From Actinomycetota bacterium (lineage in GTDB: Bacteria; Actinomycetota; Aquicultoria; UBA3085; Oleimmundimicrobiaceae), in contig DSBK01000016.1 in the NCBI GenBank assembly GCA_011046085.1, positions 1,050 to 65,049 of the forward strand: 64,000 nucleotides of DNA, written 5' to 3'. Below, one piece after another: positions 1,507 through 53,568 of this stretch. The notes under the pieces were generated by a model. That model was not told the DNA's origin, did no database searches, and saw only the letters and a list, made by a program, of their open reading frames with translations. Numbering within the stretch: position 1 is the stretch's first letter; each line of letters opens with the position of its first letter. A program made the translations under genes and the position numbers.

Positions 1507-3070
1507 AATAAAATTTAAGATTGTTTTATTCATGGCTTTTTTGTTTTTGTTTGCCGTAAACAGTGATGTTTTGGCGGCCGGCAGGTTTATCGTTCCCGCC
1601 AATACCACTTTTGAAGGAGGCATAGGAGCGGGAGTTGTGCCAATTGAAGTCGATGGCCAACTCAAAGGCAACATTTTTGGATTTCCCGAAGAAGTAATCG
1701 TTCGCGGAGGTGTCGATGGAGATATAGGTGTTGATGCTACCGTGTATCTTAAACCAGGCGCGGTGGTTAACGGCGACATCTCTGCCGGTAAGCTCGTCAG
1801 AGAACTGGGGTCCGAATTTAATGGGAAGTTTACTTCTCGCTCCGAACCGTCTTCTCCGCCTTTTTATTTTATAATCCTGGAGCTCGTTCCCATTCTTATT
1901 TTTATTGGTTTGAGTTTCATCATACAGCGGTTTTTCTTTAATAGATTTGAAACGGTGGTTGAAGGCTGTAAAGGTAGAGGGGTGCTTTTATTTGGGTTGG
2001 GTTTTATGTCGATGATTCTCTGGATTGGTTTTTTGGCTATTATCAACGGGTTTTTTACCTTGTTTTTTTCAAGTGGTCAGGGTAGTGACCTTGGTTTGGA
2101 AACAGGGGGTTTCTCCGTGCCGACCATTATACTGTATTTTCTTGCGGCATCACCTCTCATCATATCCCTGGCAGTTTTCAGTAGGGTAGTTGGAAGGTTT
2201 GTTTTTAGCCGTTTTGTTGACTCGATTTATGCTCAAGTTATATTAGGTTCTTTTTTGATATTGTGGTTGATTTTTCTTAGTTCTTTCTTAAGTATTGTTG
2301 TTTTGCCTGTTTTGGCTATTCCGGCTTTAACTATATTGGGCTCTATTGTGGTAACGCGATACGGTTCTTTTTCGCTCGGGAGGCCCAACAAAAAGCAACA
2401 TTTTTATCTTGTGGCAACCATTTTATTTATGGTTTTTATGATTATAATCCCTGCCTCTTTATATATTTATGTTCCTCAAGTATACGGGTTAGCCTCTCCG
2501 AATTATAGAGCAGGTCAACCATTTGAGATTAATAATTTGTCTTTTAAGAAAGACTACATTGAGATAGTTTTTTTAGAAGGGGTTGGTGTGCCCATTATGT
2601 TGGACGATAATTTGCAAGGGACGGTTGTTTTAGGCAAGGGTTATTTTAACTTTGGTCTGCCTGAGTCAAAAGAGGATGAGCGCATATCCTTTGTGATAGA
2701 TAGGTGCGCTGTTTTAGTTTCAGATAAAGATAACGGTAGCTCTCTTAGCGGAAGACCTGCATCTATTTCAAAAGAGAAAGTTGACGAGGCCATGGTTAGT
2801 TTTGATTTGATGAGCAGGGATGTTATTAGAGTGCCTGCAAATATATTGGGTGTGCAATTTTTTGATTTATACAGGGTGGTAGATGTTGAAAGATTGAGAG
2901 AAACAAAGGGTTTAAATTCTTTAATTTATATGATTAGTCATGGACAAAAGATTGTCTACAAAGAAGAAAAAACTAAGCTTAATGGAAAAGAAACAACAGC
3001 GATCACTCTTTTTGCGGACGAAGGATTTTATGTCTTCCTTACGCCTGATTGCATTGGTCCTTTTGAATAA
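1487..3070 (+). CDS. Polytopic membrane protein: signal peptide, N-terminal bactofilin-like Gly/Val/Asp beta-helix repeats, then about 8 TM helices and a roughly 200-aa C-terminal domain
   Basis: Signal peptide KIVLFMAFLFLFAVNSDVLAAG; repeats VIVRGGVDGDIGVDATVYLKPGAVVNGDISAG; hydrophobic blocks 1850-2500. Start at ATG 1487 overlaps the anti-sigma gene by 20 nt. Confidence 0.5.
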   Translation: MVTRAGRIKFKIVLFMAFLFLFAVNSDVLAAGRFIVPANTTFEGGIGAGVVPIEVDGQLKGNIFGFPEEVIVRGGVDGDIGVDATVYLKPGAVVNGDISAGKLVRELGSEFNGKFTSRSEPSSPPFYFIILELVPILIFIGLSFIIQRFFFNRFETVVEGCKGRGVLLFGLGFMSMILWIGFLAIINGFFTLFFSSGQGSDLGLETGGFSVPTIILYFLAASPLIISLAVFSRVVGRFVFSRFVDSIYAQVILGSFLILWLIFLSSFLSIVVLPVLAIPALTILGSIVVTRYGSFSLGRPNKKQHFYLVATILFMVFMIIIPASLYIYVPQVYGLASPNYRAGQPFEINNLSFKKDYIEIVFLEGVGVPIMLDDNLQGTVVLGKGYFNFGLPESKEDERISFVIDRCAVLVSDKDNGSSLSGRPASISKEKVDEAMVSFDLMSRDVIRVPANILGVQFFDLYRVVDVERLRETKGLNSLIYMISHGQKIVYKEEKTKLNGKETTAITLFADEGFYVFLTPDCIGPFE

Positions 3071-3125
3071 ACTTTTTAAAAATCTCAGATTTATGCCCTA
3101 TTGTTTTTTCGAGAGCCCCATCTTT

Positions 3126-3190
3126 TTGAATAAATTTCCAATTTATTGAATATTTATTGACAAATATTCAAGTTTTATGTATATTATGAC
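3126..3190 (+). promoter_or_regulatory. arg operon promoter (-35 TTGACA 3157-3162, 17-nt spacer, -10 TATATT 3180-3185) overlapped by three ARG-box-like ArgR operators
   Basis: Candidate ARG boxes TTGAATAAATTTCCAATT, TTGAATATTTATTGACAA and TGACAAATATTCAAG match the TNTGAATWWWWATTCANW consensus; argR lies in the same cluster. Confidence 0.55.
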
Positions 3191-3228
3191 GATAATATAG
3201 AAAATTTTAGGATTTTAAGGAGAACAAG

Positions 3229-4272
3229 ATGATTAAGGTTGGAATAATAGGAGCATCTGGCTATACTGGCGCTGAGTTGATGCGGATGTTGATAAACCAT
3301 CCTGATGTGGAAATATCTTATGTGACCGCAAACAAATATGCGGGGCAAAAAGTTGCTTCCCTTTATCATAATTTTTATGGCATATGCGATCTTTTGTTTG
3401 AAAAATTTGACTTAGATACGGCAAAGAAAAATGCTGAAGTGTTCTTCGTTGCTCTCCCCCATGGAACGGCCATGGATGTTGTTCCCGATCTTTTAGGAGA
3501 TAACCGGAAGGTTATTGATCTAAGCGGCGACTTTCGTTTTTTTGAGAAAAGTGTTTATGAAAGTTGGTACAAGATGCCTCACAAATATCCTGAACTCCTT
3601 GGAAAAGCCGCTTATGGTCTTTGTGAGATGAATCGGGAAGAGATTAAGAAGTCTAATTTCATTTCCAATCCGGGTTGTTTTCCCACGGGGTCGGTTTTAG
3701 CGATAGCGCCTCTTTTGAAGAAAAATTTGATTTTTGGGGACGACATTGTGGTTGACGCTCTTACCGGTGTCTCTGGAGCCGGTCGCGGTGCTAAAGAAGG
3801 GACTCATTATTGTTCATGTGATGAAAATGTAAGCACATACAAAGTGGGAGGCATTCATCAGCATATTCCCGAGATGGAGCAGGAAATGGGTAAAATTTCC
3901 GGTAAAGAGGTAAAGCTCACTTTTGCTCCCCATCTTGCGTCCTTTTCAAGGGGTATTTACAGCACAATATATTCCAAGTTAAAAGAAGGTATTTTAACGG
4001 AAGAACTCTTAAAAGTCTATAATGATTTTTATAAAAACGATTATTTCGTTAAGGTTTTATCTAAAGGTATTTATCCTGAGGTTAAATCCGTTGCAGGCTC
4101 GAACTTTTGCCAAATTGGATTGGAGGTTGATAAGAGAACCAGCAGGGTGATCGTGGTTTCGGCAATCGATAATTTGGTTAAAGGGGCATCGGGCCAGGCA
4201 ATTCAAAATATGAATTTAATGTGTGGATTTGATGAGAAAGAAGGTTTAGAAGTAGTGGGACTTGTGCCTTAA
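3229..4272 (+). CDS. argC: N-acetyl-gamma-glutamyl-phosphate reductase
   Basis: N-terminal MIKVGIIGASGYTGAELMRML Rossmann motif; catalytic Cys region NPGCFPTG; RBS AAGGAG. Confidence 0.9.
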   Translation: MIKVGIIGASGYTGAELMRMLINHPDVEISYVTANKYAGQKVASLYHNFYGICDLLFEKFDLDTAKKNAEVFFVALPHGTAMDVVPDLLGDNRKVIDLSGDFRFFEKSVYESWYKMPHKYPELLGKAAYGLCEMNREEIKKSNFISNPGCFPTGSVLAIAPLLKKNLIFGDDIVVDALTGVSGAGRGAKEGTHYCSCDENVSTYKVGGIHQHIPEMEQEMGKISGKEVKLTFAPHLASFSRGIYSTIYSKLKEGILTEELLKVYNDFYKNDYFVKVLSKGIYPEVKSVAGSNFCQIGLEVDKRTSRVIVVSAIDNLVKGASGQAIQNMNLMCGFDEKEGLEVVGLVP

Positions 4273-50190: not shown

Positions 50191-50556
50191 TTGCTAGATA
50201 CAAAAGAGATTGTAAGAATAGCTACATATAAAGCTTATGAAAAAAAAGCTGAAAACATCATTGTTTTAGACTTAAGAAATCTGTTGAGCATCACCGATTA
50301 CTTTGTAATTTGTGAAGGTAAAAATGAGCGGCAGGTTGACTACATTTCTGATTTCATCCAGGAAAAGCTACGTGAGAAGAAAGAAAAGCCAATTGGGGTT
50401 GAAGGAAAAGGGAAAAATGGGTGGATTTTGCTCGATTATGGAAGTGTGGTCATCCATGTGTTTACCACTGAGGTAAGAGACTATTATCAGATTGAGCGTC
50501 TCTGGAAAGATGCTCCTCAAATTGAGTGGGAAGAAAACCCGAAACATAAGGTTTAA
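50191..50556 (+). CDS. rsfS: Ribosome silencing factor RsfS (Iojap)
   Basis: Iojap family; conserved nadD-yqeK-rsfS order. Confidence 0.85.
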   Translation: MLDTKEIVRIATYKAYEKKAENIIVLDLRNLLSITDYFVICEGKNERQVDYISDFIQEKLREKKEKPIGVEGKGKNGWILLDYGSVVIHVFTTEVRDYYQIERLWKDAPQIEWEENPKHKV

Positions 50557-50619
50557 CCATTTTATTATCCTTTGTGCAAAAACATATCCATAAATCAATG
50601 TTTGTTTAGACAAAATGCG

Positions 50620-50648
50620 TTGATTAATTAAGCTGCGTTTTATATAAT
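50620..50648 (+). promoter_or_regulatory. Consensus sigma-A promoter driving the leuS leader (-35 TTGATT 50620-50625, 17 nt, -10 TATAAT 50643-50648)
   Basis: Direct reading. Confidence 0.6.
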
Positions 50649-50666
50649 ATTCTGGCAATTGAATAT

Positions 50667-50842
50667 GAGGCGTTGAGAAGGAGTATTAGGTTTTAAGCTA
50701 GATTTAAGAGAGTTGGGAGGGTGCGAACCAACATCTGGCCAAATCAAACTCGCCTTGGAGCCCGAAGCTGAAAGCCAGGTTTGGTGTTAAGCGTAGCGTC
50801 TGGCGAACGTTAAGTCGCAAAAAGTGAGCAAAAGGTTTAAGT
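50667..50842 (+). promoter_or_regulatory. T-box leader 5' part: Stem I (GCGUUGAGAAGGAGUAUUAGG GA/AG boxes, AGAGAG bulge, distal loop, specifier CUC-G at about 50748-50751) and Stem II/IIA-B region with an F-box-like CGAACGUUAAG
   Basis: Close match to the B. subtilis glyQS Stem I 5' consensus (GCGAUGAGAAGAAGAGUAUUAAGG); the Leu codon CUC matches downstream leuS. Confidence 0.6.
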
Positions 50843-50917
50843 GGGGATGTAGCTCAGTGGGAGAGCGCCTCCTTGGCGTGGAGGAGGCCGAGGGTTCAAT
50901 CCCCTCCATCTCCACCA
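50843..50917 (+). tRNA. tRNA-Ala (anticodon GGC), CCA encoded
   Basis: Full cloverleaf: acceptor GGGGAUG/CAUCUCC with G3:U70, D-arm GCUC-AGUGGGA-GAGC, anticodon arm CCUCC-UUGGCGU-GGAGG, T-arm GAGGG-UUCAAUC-CCCUC. Confidence 0.9.
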
Positions 50918-50931
50918 ATATATCTTTTGTT

Positions 50932-50987
50932 AAGTAGGGTGGTACCGCGAGATGGCCTTTCGTCCCTTTGGATGAAAGGTTTTTTTG
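50932..50987 (+). promoter_or_regulatory. T-box conserved sequence AAGUAGGGUGGUACCGCGA (antiterminator) and overlapping intrinsic terminator (10-bp stem CCUUUCGUCC/GGAUGAAAGG + U7)
   Basis: 15/15 match to the T-box core GGGUGGUACCGCG; hairpin + U-run. Confidence 0.8.
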
Positions 50988-51008
50988 TTAGTTTTGAAAC
51001 CAAAAAAA

Positions 51009-51098
51009 GGGGTCAGGTCTTTAATCTTGACATTTTAAAAATGAAACTGTTTAATTAAATGTCAAAAAACAAGACCTGACCCCAAAGCCAAGCTTTGG
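51009..51098 (+). other. Long nested hairpin in the leuS 5' UTR (13-bp outer stem ggggtcaggtctt/aagacctgacccc; 9-bp inner stem ttgacattt/aaatgtcaa) followed by the ccaaagc-caa-gctttgg hairpin at the RBS
   Basis: Perfect inverted repeats read directly; contains a promoter-like TTGACA-17-TTTAAT. Confidence 0.5.
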
Positions 51099-51105
51099 AG
51101 GGGTT

Positions 51106-53568
51106 ATGGCAAAGTATGATTTTGCAAAGATTGAGAAAAAATGGCAGAAAAAATGGGAAGAATCGAATATATATGAGATAACCGAAGATTTAAAGCTTAC
51201 CAAAAAATACATCCTTGAAATGTTTCCATATCCTTCCGGAAATATCCACATGGGTCACGTAAGAAACTACTCCATAGGTGATGTCGTCGCTCGTTATGGC
51301 AGGATGAAGGGCTTCAATGTGCTTCATCCAATTGGCTATGATGCATTTGGGATGCCTGCTGAAAATGCGGCAATTAAACACGGTGTTCATCCTCGAAAGT
51401 GGACTTATGAAAATATCGACATAATGCGCGACCAACTAAAAAGCTTGGGTTTAAGTTACAACTGGGATCGTGAGGTTATAACCTGTGACCCCGATTACTA
51501 TAAATGGGGGCAGTGGCTCTTCTTAAAATTTTACAAGAGAGGTTTGGTGTATCGTAAACAATCGAAAGTTAATTGGTGCAGTTCTTGTGAAACGGTTCTC
51601 GCCAATGAGCAGGTTGAAGGTGGTGGTTGCTGGAGATGTAGTACTCTCGTTGAGCAAAAAGAACTTGAACAGTGGTACTTCAAAATTACAGACTACACCG
51701 GACCCTTGCTAAACGACCTTGAAAAACTCAAAGGGTGGCCCGAAAGGGTAAAAGTTATGCAGAAAAACTGGATTGGCCGGAGCGAAGGCGCCATGGTCGA
51801 TTTTATCCTTAAAGATGGAAAAACTGTCACCGTCTTTACAACCCGTCCCGACACGCTCTTCGGTTGCACTTTCTTTCTTCTTGCGCCGGAACATCTTCTT
51901 GTAGATGAGCTTGTCAAGGGAACTCCTTATGAGGAAGATATCGTAAAGTTTAGAGAAAAAGTTGCAAAGGAAACCGAAATCGACAGAACCTCAGCTGAAA
52001 TTGAAAAAAACGGGTGTTTTACGGGCACATACATCATAAATCCCGTAAACGGCAGAGAAGTGCCGGTTTGGATAGCAGATTATGTTCTAATGGAATACGG
52101 AACCGGTGCGGTTATGGCGGTTCCAGCCCACGATGAGAGGGACTTTGCTTTTGCCAAGAAATACGAGCTTCCAATCGAGCTGGTTATTCAACCTGCGGGC
52201 GAGGATTTAAGCTCCGGTCTCGATAAGGCATATACTGGCGAAGGACTAATGATAAATTCAGGCAAGTTTAACGGGATGCCCAGCAAAGAAGGGGCAAAAG
52301 CGATAGCCAAATTTTTAAAAGAGCAGAACAAAGGCGAGCTTGCGGTAAATTACCGTCTTAGGGACTGGCTGATTTCGCGCCAGCGTTATTGGGGAAACCC
52401 AATTCCCATAATTTATTGTGATAAGTGTGGCATAGTTCCCGTTTCCGAAGAAGATCTGCCTGTTATACTTCCCGATGATGTAAAGATTACCGAAAAAGGC
52501 GGCTCTCCTTTGGCAAAACACGAGAGGTTTGTGAATACAGTCTGTCCAAGGTGTTCTGGGCCTGCAAGAAGAGAAACAGATACTATGGATACGTTTACCT
52601 GCTCTTCATGGTACTTTCTTCGTTATTGCAGTCCAAATGAAGGCAAATTGCCCTTTGATGGCAGTGCCGCAAATTACTGGATGCCCGTTGACCAATACAT
52701 CGGCGGCATAGAACACGCCATTATGCATCTTCTTTACGCTCGTTTTTTCACTAAAGTCATAAAAGATATGGGAATGTGTGAGGTTGAAGAGCCTTTTTCC
52801 AATTTGCTAACCCAAGGGATGGTCATAAAAGATGGGGCCAAGATGTCAAAGTCCAAGGGTAATGTGGTAGACCCCAACGAAATTATCAAAACTTACGGGG
52901 CCGATACCGCCCGACTCTTCATCCTCTTTGCATCTCCGCCAGAAAAGGAGCTTGAATGGAGCGATCAAGGGATTCAAGGCTCATATAGATTTTTGAACAG
53001 AGTGTGGAGAATTGTTGTAAGAAATATCGAATCCTCCAAAAAAGGAGACGACACCGGGCTCGACGACACCGATAGAGAGCTTTTGAGATTTGTCCATAAG
53101 ACGATTAAAAAAGTTACGGGCGATGTAGAGCGGTTTAACTTAAACACCGCCATAAGCGCGATAATGGAGCTGGTTAACGCAAATTATAAATATTATGACG
53201 ATAAAGGCGAGGGCAAGGTTAATTCAGATCTTTTGACCGAAGTTAATGAGAAGCTGTTGCTTCTTCTTGCTCCTTTTGCACCCCACATTGCCGAGGAACT
53301 TTGGGAGACGATGGGTAAAATAGGCAGCGTTCATCTTGGTAAATGGCCAACTTTTGATGAGAAACTCGCTAAAGCGGAGGAGATAGCGCTAATAGTCCAG
53401 ATTAACGGCAAGGTAAGGGACAAGATAACCGTTTCTGCTGATGTTTCTGAAGAAGAGATGAAAAAAACAGCACTTTCAAGCGAGAAGCTAAAACAGTTTA
53501 CGGAAGGCAAAGAAATTGTTAAAGTGGTTGTTGTCCCCAAAAAACTTGTAAATGTAGTTGTGAGGTAG
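51106..53568 (+). CDS. leuS: Leucine--tRNA ligase
   Basis: [10 protein letters not shown] (HIGH), KMSKS, CP1 editing domain. Confidence 0.9.

Follow-up and report, generated by a model that had tools for sequence, protein, structure and literature searches.

Introduction

T-boxes are the best-understood RNAs that sense tRNA, and the leuS leader of Bacillus subtilis is an example of the canonical T-box found in front of leucyl-tRNA synthetase (LeuRS) genes. Co-transcription of tRNAs with a protein gene is known from operons such as thrU-tyrU-glyT-thrT-tufB of Escherichia coli. Condon, Putzer and Grunberg-Manago are said to have described in 1996 that the thrS T-box leader of B. subtilis is cleaved just upstream of its terminator, and that the readthrough mRNA is stabilised. 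The discriminator of T-boxes with its purine string (5'-RRRxG-Stem III-AA-3') is conserved and functionally required (Zhang 2020, PMC7583486), and both the stem and the loop of Stem III are variable among T-boxes (PMC7583486). Insertions in this part of the RNA are known as Stem Sa of staphylococcal glyS and in Stem III and helix A2 of translational T-boxes (PMC7583486). In GOLLD RNA, an embedded tRNA is maybe withheld from processing, according to a review (PMC12990946). The present work deals with the leader of leuS in a stretch of 64,000 nucleotides from an Actinomycetota bacterium (assembly GCA_011046085.1, contig DSBK01000016.1, positions 1,050 to 65,049 of the forward strand), which is called the window in the following. 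It is considered likely that this leader is a working Leu-specific, transcription-terminating T-box, that its Stem III loop houses a genuine tRNA-Ala(GGC), and that the leader is also a tRNA-Ala precursor.

The best-understood class of tRNA-sensing RNAs would thus include a T-box that carries the gene of a different tRNA in its own sensing domain, across much of Chloroflexota and Bacillota. The initial annotation of this DNA, made from the sequence alone, was not aware of any such T-box. No published description of a tRNA gene inside a T-box was found in a full-text literature search either, an earlier mention being possible. The TBDB preprint, Wels 2008 and Zhang 2020 (PMC7583486) contain no mention of a tRNA inside a T-box.

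Architecture of the leuS leader

The following elements were located in the leader of the window.

50664..50970, + strand: T-box leader (Rfam RF00230) spanning the tRNA gene; full-length alignment, model positions 1-219.
50670..50761, + strand: Stem I with AGAGAG, distal loop GGUGCGAA and Specifier Loop; Rfam alignment, and a long hairpin in the minimum free energy (MFE) fold.
50749..50751, + strand: specifier codon CUC (Leu), followed by the purine G50752 and CC; Rfam alignment and family alignment.
50808..50813, + strand: F-box CGUUAA, aligned to CGUUA of the Rfam consensus and conserved in the family alignment.
50822..50826, + strand: 5' purine string AAGUG (RRRxG) of the discriminator; read from the sequence.
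50827..50836, + strand: 5' arm of Stem III, AGCAAAAGGU; RNAduplex, MFE fold, Rfam Stem III arms and covariation.
50843..50917, + strand: tRNA-Ala(GGC) gene with G3:U70, A73, encoded CCA and U at position -1 (50842); ARAGORN, Rfam and sequence reading.
50922..50931, + strand: 3' arm of Stem III, AUCUUUUGUU; RNAduplex, MFE fold and covariation.
50932..50949, + strand: T-box sequence AAGUAGGGUGGUACCGCG, including the AA after Stem III and the UGGU complementary to the ACCA of uncharged tRNA.
50936..50967, + strand: antiterminator with helix A1 (AGGG/CCCU), 7-nt bulge UGGUACC and helix A2 (GCGAG/UUCGU); Rfam alignment.
50954..50988, + strand: intrinsic terminator, a 12-pair stem (50954-50981) followed by a U tract; terminator scan and MFE fold.

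A scan of positions 50500-51150 under an E-value threshold gave a match to RF00230 at 50664-50970 with 90.3 bits (E 2.5e-20). Everything from Stem I to the antiterminator was matched in the alignment, and an insertion of 85 nt in the Stem III loop holds the tRNA. The T-box model therefore scores Stem I upstream of the tRNA as part of one end-to-end alignment. At the Rfam gathering threshold, the T-box was not reported in the scan of the whole window because of this insertion, while family members of equal architecture reached 96.5-133.2 bits with the same model.

Stem I of the window displays AGAGAG, the distal loop GGUGCGAA and the specifier CUC followed by G (50749-50752). The discriminator is represented by AAGUG, Stem III, AA (50932-33) and the bulge UGGUACC (50940-46). 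According to RNAduplex, the arms AGCAAAAGGU and AUCUUUUGUU pair around the tRNA with -9.5 kcal/mol, and the MFE fold of 50655-50992 contains the Stem I hairpin, the Stem III helix, the cloverleaf and the terminator. The 5' strand of the terminator overlaps the 3' strands of the antiterminator, and as 50954-50967 is common to both, the two structures are mutually exclusive.

Most of the initial annotation was borne out here: the CUC specifier, F-box, T-box core, antiterminator and terminator were recovered at the expected places by the Rfam alignment and the terminator scan, the tRNA-Ala is complete, and its 3' end lies 14 nt from the T-box sequence as claimed. One point had to be revised. The tRNA had been placed where Stem III normally sits, whereas Stem III is intact (50827-36 and 50922-31) and the tRNA is located in its loop. 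Since stem and loop of Stem III are variable among T-boxes (PMC7583486), the tRNA has its place in the only region of the 3' sensing domain where variation is tolerated. Judged by all structural criteria that were applied, the leader appears to be a T-box riboswitch, with a nested gene that is predicted to function independently.

Distribution of tRNA-bearing T-boxes

One-genome-per-species contigs were scanned with a pattern made of the tRNA T-loop (GGTTCRANNCC), 22-52 nt and the T-box core GGTGGNACCRCG, by which at least 120 loci were obtained. Among the matches listed, a tRNA overlapped the match on the same strand in 88 of 120 cases, and 85 of these 88 were tRNA-Ala(GGC). The other three matches, to one tRNA each for Asp, Thr and Glu and in one case from an archaeon, were dismissed as chance co-occurrence of the pattern. 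Taxonomic labels of the 85 loci, again among the matches listed, were Chloroflexota in 49 and Bacillota in 26 cases, with single loci labelled Atribacteria, Coprothermobacterota and 'actinobacterium'. Among the same matches, the carriers in Chloroflexota comprised Chloroflexia, Thermomicrobiales, Ktedonobacteria, Anaerolineae and Limnocylindria, and those in Bacillota comprised Syntrophomonadaceae, Peptococcaceae, Desulfotomaculum relatives, Thermoanaerobacteraceae and others. Most of the 85 listed loci have a LeuRS homologue downstream that is 45-68% identical to that of the window, and most of the listed loci without it end before the gene. Cultured carriers of the arrangement include Desulfofundulus thermosubterraneus DSM 16057, Desulfitispora alkaliphila DSM 22410, Tengunoibacter tsumagoiensis Uno3, Thermosyntropha lipolytica DSM 11003 and a Syntrophomonas strain.

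Orthologous leuS leaders were compared for the presence of the tRNA. It was found within a full-length T-box match in relatives of the window with 82%, 71% and 66% LeuRS identity and in Thermoanaerobacterales bacterium 50_218. It is absent from locus L130 (Thermosediminibacteraceae), a compact leuS T-box in which a minimal Stem III hairpin, GGC-AUUG-GCC, occupies the exact place of the tRNA, and loci L126, L127 and L132 have neither T-box nor tRNA before leuS. The arrangement appears to be old, widespread and maintained, and to have been lost repeatedly, the latter because close LeuRS relatives include tRNA-bearing T-boxes, a tRNA-less T-box and leuS genes without any leader.

Several variants of the leader were observed. 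Candidatus Aquicultor is among the relatives of the metagenome-assembled genome (MAG) to which the window belongs. In L123 (positions 1153-1457) and L128, the bulge reads UGGUAUU instead of UGGUACC, Stem I deviates in conserved motifs, and GAGUUUAUC stands in the specifier region, where UUA may be the codon. This state represents either decay of the switch or a change of specifier. In L124 (1186-1470), the relative with 71% LeuRS identity, about 170 extra nt are present between the 3' end of the tRNA and the T-box core, giving a Stem III loop of about 250 nt, and such members are invisible to the 22-52 nt pattern. In a Peptococcaceae MAG (L131, 1070-1170), the T-box core and terminator precede leuS with no Stem I, and TTGACT-17-TATAAT stands directly upstream of the core; this element looks like the relic of a truncated T-box.

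Other loci differ in the genes around the leader. A CUC T-box with embedded tRNA-Ala(GGC) precedes ilvE, coding for a branched-chain amino acid transaminase, in a member of Chloroflexota (L066), and in Desulfotruncus alcoholivorax DSM 16058 (L026) the same leader precedes a gene of the fatty-acid CoA ligase family and not leuS. In L018 (5241-6625) and other Limnocylindria loci, leuS is separated from the tRNA-bearing leader by two genes, for a GNAT acetyltransferase and a class I methyltransferase, and the leader may control a three-gene operon there. An Anaerolineae MAG (L029) harbours a class A RNase P RNA gene (3051-3420, 282 bits) about 4 kb from the tRNA-bearing leuS leader, which is probably a coincidence, and a second T-box at 1035-1275.

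Conservation and covariation of the riboswitch

In almost all of 83 aligned leaders, the specifier position reads (G/A)AA-CUC-R. Apart from the window, 14 family members were compared with the Rfam T-box model; each gave a full-length match that extends across the tRNA, and nine scored above the gathering score. The purine string of the family is well preserved (R 95%, A 92%, G 92%, x, G 80%), as is the AA after Stem III (97% and 94%). The linkers between Stem III and the tRNA vary from at least 1 to 18 nt on the 5' side and from 3 to 25 nt on the 3' side.

When the Stem III region was aligned with MAFFT alone, the window and a few other sequences were out of register and 68.6% of cells were paired. 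Stem III, the tRNA and the T-box core were therefore combined in a covariance model, with which 81 members (80 distinct sequences) were realigned. In this fitted alignment, each of the six Stem III pairs in the model shows changes on both sides; one of them, for example, occurs as UA in 32, CG in 29, AU in 4 and GC in 4 sequences, another as AU in 29, CG in 19 and GC in 16. For the whole structure, 96.5% of cells were paired, compared to at most 55% with partners slid by 1-3 columns. Double changes in all six Stem III pairs were already present in the unfitted MAFFT alignment, and the cognate arms of Stem III pair better than non-cognate arms (p 1.6e-7), a result that is independent of the fitted alignment. 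Covariation between the 5' and the 3' arm can only be selected if both arms are in one RNA; since the arm upstream of the tRNA covaries with the arm downstream of it, the two are likely to be parts of the same molecule. The T-box part of the leader thus appears to be under selection.

These data bear on the possibility, raised in the initial annotation, that a recent tRNA insertion has disabled the T-box, leaving the leader as a relic and leuS to be expressed otherwise. The score of the window slightly under the Rfam gathering score, the degraded-looking core of its close relative L123 and a possible extra promoter-like element downstream of the terminator (51027-51055) are in line with this idea. 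However, the same tRNA is found at the same place in at least 85 loci with labels as diverse as those given above for the matches listed (49 Chloroflexota, 26 Bacillota), the CUC specifier is conserved family-wide, the discriminator has kept its motifs, the two arms of Stem III covary across the tRNA, and the Rfam threshold is exceeded by nine of the 14 other members tested. The window itself has every conserved T-box motif as well as the mutually exclusive terminator. A disabled T-box is considered extremely unlikely.

The embedded tRNA-Ala(GGC)

ARAGORN and Rfam agree on the tRNA-Ala(GGC) gene of the window, which reached 68.6 bits with the Rfam tRNA model (gathering score 29, E 7.5e-13). 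It is 72 nt long as aligned to this model and 75 nt long with the encoded CCA. ARAGORN detected no second tRNA in the 64 kb of the window. An exact search of metagenome contigs for the tRNA sequence matched one contig with the same arrangement, which says nothing on copy number.

The GGC anticodon, G3:U70, A73, U8 and A14 are each present in 89 of 89 embedded copies (59 distinct sequences), and G3:U70 was found in 80 of 80 sequences of the covariance-model alignment. CCA is encoded in 70 of the 89 copies and missing in the other 19. In the 80 distinct family sequences, the four stems of the tRNA are 98-100% paired and show many compensatory changes. U at position -1 occurs in 65 of these 80 sequences (81%), compared to about 24% U in the remaining 5' linker. 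A U at this position is a preference of bacterial RNase P, and from this feature the embedded tRNA looks like an RNase P substrate. The tRNA part appears to be under selection as a tRNA because of its invariant anticodon and identity set, the compensatory changes in its stems and the enrichment of U(-1). As a detail, position 37 of the window tRNA (50878) is G, which is shared by 6 of 89 family members, A being present in the others.

The tRNA-shaped element could alternatively be a structural module that is never matured for translation and that, for example, helps folding, causes a delay or binds a protein. Such a module would lengthen the distance from Stem I to the decision point by about 90 nt and might in this way give more time for tRNA-Leu binding. 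Neither the invariant GGC, G3:U70, A73, U8, A14 and T-loop nor the mostly encoded CCA would be needed for such a role, however, and the same holds for U at -1. In 12 Chloroflexota loci, moreover, the tRNA lies within about 370 nt downstream of a tRNA-Ala(CGC), like in an ordinary tRNA gene cluster. A purely structural function is regarded as most unlikely.

Promoters and transcription

Evidence on promoters was obtained from consensus scans. One candidate was found in the window.

50620..50648, + strand: sigma-70-type promoter-like sequence TTGATT-17-TATAAT just 5' of Stem I, with 10 of 12 matches.

This site, which had already been recognised in the initial annotation, is the only promoter-like sequence on the + strand in 50400-51300, and the consensus scan gave no promoter-like site between Stem I and the tRNA in the window. 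In L123, TTGACT-17-TATAAT stands at the place aligned to it. Sites with at least 10 of 12 matches were found to end 150-260 nt upstream of the tRNA, i.e. just 5' of Stem I, in 38 of 80 loci, and many of them are perfect (TTGACA-17-TATAAT, 12 of 12).

A tRNA-Ala(CGC) on the same strand was identified 182-366 nt upstream of the embedded tRNA in 12 Chloroflexota loci (L004, L008, L040, L048, L063, L064, L066, L092, L096, L097, L108 and L114). It is located shortly upstream of Stem I (estimated within about 50 nt) and abuts Stem I in some loci. A promoter-like site is present just upstream of the tRNA-Ala(CGC) in 11 of the 12 loci and is the sole site in six. In those Chloroflexota, one operon appears to contain two tRNA-Ala genes with the T-box between them.

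The leader could also consist of two transcription units, in which the tRNA has its own promoter within the leader, the leuS leader starts downstream of the tRNA, and Stem I is unrelated or vestigial. A promoter-like site within 120 nt of the tRNA was indeed found in three of 80 loci, all of them from Ktedonobacteria (L004, L008 and L048), where TTGYCG-17-TATAAT, located near the F-box, ends 40-64 nt before the embedded tRNA; this site may be an additional, internal tRNA promoter. The other family loci and the window have no such site, however, and the 30 nt before the tRNA are taken up by the F-box, the purine string and the 5' arm of Stem III. For a T-box to work, Stem I and the T-box core must share one transcript: a core without Stem I is unable to read tRNA-Leu, yet Stem I and CUC are conserved, and the Stem III arms on either side of the tRNA covary as expected for one RNA. 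The placement of the promoters fits a single transcript, and two separate units are very unlikely.

Genes and sequences next to the leader

The gene upstream of the leader codes for RsfS. The gene downstream, which would be the regulated one, agrees with the specifier amino acid, as leuS follows a CUC (Leu) T-box, and its identity, already assumed in the initial annotation, was confirmed by Pfam domains.

51106..53568, + strand: leuS, leucyl-tRNA synthetase of 820 aa; Pfam tRNA-synt_1 and Anticodon_1, NCBI name leucine--tRNA ligase.

The ribosome-binding site of leuS is GGAGGGG at 51097-51103. Between the terminator of the leader and this site, a near-perfect hairpin of 75 nt (GGGGUCAGGUCUU...AAGACCUGACCCC) was found at 51009-51083; the 115-nt stretch 50996-51110 containing it folds with -40.8 kcal/mol (z -5.5). 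The hairpin is not present in the relatives L123 and L125 and is thus lineage-specific. It was considered as a repeated mobile element, which was rejected since it occurs once in the window, with matches to its own two arms only. The hairpin holds the promoter-like sequence TTGACA-17-TTTAAT (51027-51055), the -10 element of which lacks the A at position 2.

Proposed mechanism

The observed anatomy, wide conservation, covariation and promoter placement can be combined in the following model, in which the leader is both a working T-box and a tRNA-Ala precursor. From one promoter 5' of Stem I, a transcript would be produced that contains successively Stem I, the Stem II region with the F-box, the 5' arm of Stem III, the tRNA-Ala, the 3' arm, the T-box and the antiterminator/terminator. 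Stem I would capture tRNA-Leu(GAG) via the CUC specifier, and the decision would fall during transcription of the roughly 70 nt that follow the tRNA. With uncharged tRNA-Leu(GAG), the ACCA end would pair with UGGU in the T-box bulge and stabilise the antiterminator; charged tRNA-Leu would be unable to pair with the bulge, and the terminator would form. In both outcomes, the RNA would contain a complete tRNA-Ala precursor. RNase P would release the 5' end of the tRNA-Ala, and the 3' end would be trimmed back to the encoded CCA or, where no CCA is encoded, formed by RNase Z and CCA addition. The leader would in this way be a constitutive transcription unit for tRNA-Ala(GGC), and only leuS would be conditional. 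It is presumed that the riboswitch normally decides before cleavage takes place, and that the tRNA matures and serves in translation.

A number of points weigh against this model. The T-box of the window falls 2.7 bits short of the gathering score of 93, and AAA precedes its specifier where most family members have GAA. The T-box of L123, the relative with 82% LeuRS identity, reaches only 42.3 bits and has the core GGUGGUAUUGCG, while its tRNA is identical to that of the window; because of this combination, the riboswitch may be less constrained than the tRNA in the clade of the window. The sequence TTGACA-17-TTTAAT in the hairpin downstream of the terminator could, if active, bypass the T-box. 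The pattern scan demanded a T-loop together with a T-box core and gives no frequency among all leuS T-boxes, and the taxonomy labels of the MAGs are the depositors' own, so that a few may be binning errors. The covariance-model alignment was fitted to the structure of the model, which favours pairing. Finally, the single transcript, the processing sites and the order of events are deduced from sequence.

Two direct interactions of the embedded tRNA with its host RNA were considered and rejected. Decoding in cis, by which the GCC after the CUC specifier would be read by the embedded tRNA-Ala, was discarded as R-CC is the generic T-box consensus and the family also has GUC, ACC and GUU. Pairing in cis of the ACCA of the embedded tRNA with the UGGU bulge was discarded as 19 of 89 copies have no encoded CCA and the 3' end is not free in the precursor.

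Excision of the tRNA may itself be part of the regulation, as the cuts by RNase P and at the 3' side would separate the sensor, Stem I, from the expression platform. Variants of this idea are a limited time window for sensing, a 'split' T-box held together by Stem III, and an altered stability of the leuS mRNA. It is compatible with the model above and adds one step to it. The tRNA is always found inside the discriminator Stem III, the arms of which would remain paired once the tRNA is cut out; U is frequent at position -1, as expected of an RNase P substrate; and the 3' cut would leave the T-box and the antiterminator/terminator hairpin at the 5' end of the leuS mRNA. However, the variation of the linkers (at least 1-18 nt on the 5' side, 3-25 nt on the 3' side, about 170 extra nt in L124) speaks against a precise geometric coupling, a tRNA-less leuS T-box exists (L130), which indicates that the switch does not need the tRNA, and no sequence feature that requires coupling was found. 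More generally, the variable linkers, the extra nt in L124 and the tRNA-less leuS T-boxes argue that the tRNA would not be required for switching. Regulation by excision is regarded as rather unlikely.

In a stronger form, the nested tRNA would be no passenger. Its cleavage would be obligatory, yielding a two-piece T-box held by Stem III, and the cuts would set the 5' end and the stability of the leuS mRNA; in a related evolutionary reading, the ancestral leuS T-box of Terrabacteria would have arisen inside a tRNA-Ala operon. This proposal is unlikely, without being far-fetched. If cleavage were obligatory, the output of leuS would depend on the tRNA-processing capacity as well as on tRNA-Leu charging. 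In the related reading of an ancestral operon, the order would be tRNA-Ala(CGC), Stem I ... tRNA-Ala(GGC) ... T-box, leuS, an order which is still seen in some Chloroflexota.

Should the model of a working T-box with a genuine tRNA hold, a riboswitch leader, usually seen as RNA that is discarded upon termination, could be a productive gene, giving constitutive tRNA-Ala and conditional LeuRS. It would represent a natural experiment on timing, as the switch must decide before, or despite, the cuts that separate the sensor from the switch. For annotation, the insertion pushes some real T-boxes, among them that of the window, under the Rfam threshold, and pipelines then report the tRNA only. The wide and patchy distribution offers material for reconstructing the joint evolution of T-box and tRNA operons.

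Comparison with known systems

Compared to the canonical leuS T-box (RF00230, as in L130), the leader has the same Stem I with CUC, F-box, purine string, Stem III with AA, UGGU and antiterminator/terminator in front of leuS. It differs in the Stem III loop, which has a few nt in the canonical form (GGC-AUUG-GCC in L130) and here contains the tRNA and its linkers; its length is about 85-90 nt in the window, and L124 reaches about 250 nt. The insertions known from discriminators, such as Stem Sa of glyS, likewise add RNA to variable parts of the 3' sensing domain. Those are plain helices, for which a part in folding or in contacting tRNA has been proposed, and none is a gene with its own product, whereas the insertion described here is a tRNA with all alanine identity elements.

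As in operons of the E. coli thrU-tufB type, one promoter would give rise to a tRNA and an mRNA, to be parted by RNase P and 3' processing, which is a prediction in the present case. In those operons, the tRNAs are separate modules upstream of the protein gene; here, the tRNA is nested in the regulatory fold, and its excision would sever the sensor from the switch. In thrS of B. subtilis, the readthrough mRNA begins with a hairpin after the cut, and the excision of the tRNA is predicted to have the same result for leuS. For thrS, a general mRNA endonuclease cuts at an unstructured site, while the cuts predicted here are those of tRNA maturation and would also yield a tRNA.

The nearest parallel is GOLLD, a large, structured non-coding RNA that can likewise have a tRNA gene within it. 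The function of GOLLD, which occurs in phages and tRNA arrays, is not known, and its embedded tRNA is variable and not universal. In the leuS leaders, by contrast, the host RNA is a riboswitch of known mechanism and the guest is always tRNA-Ala(GGC).

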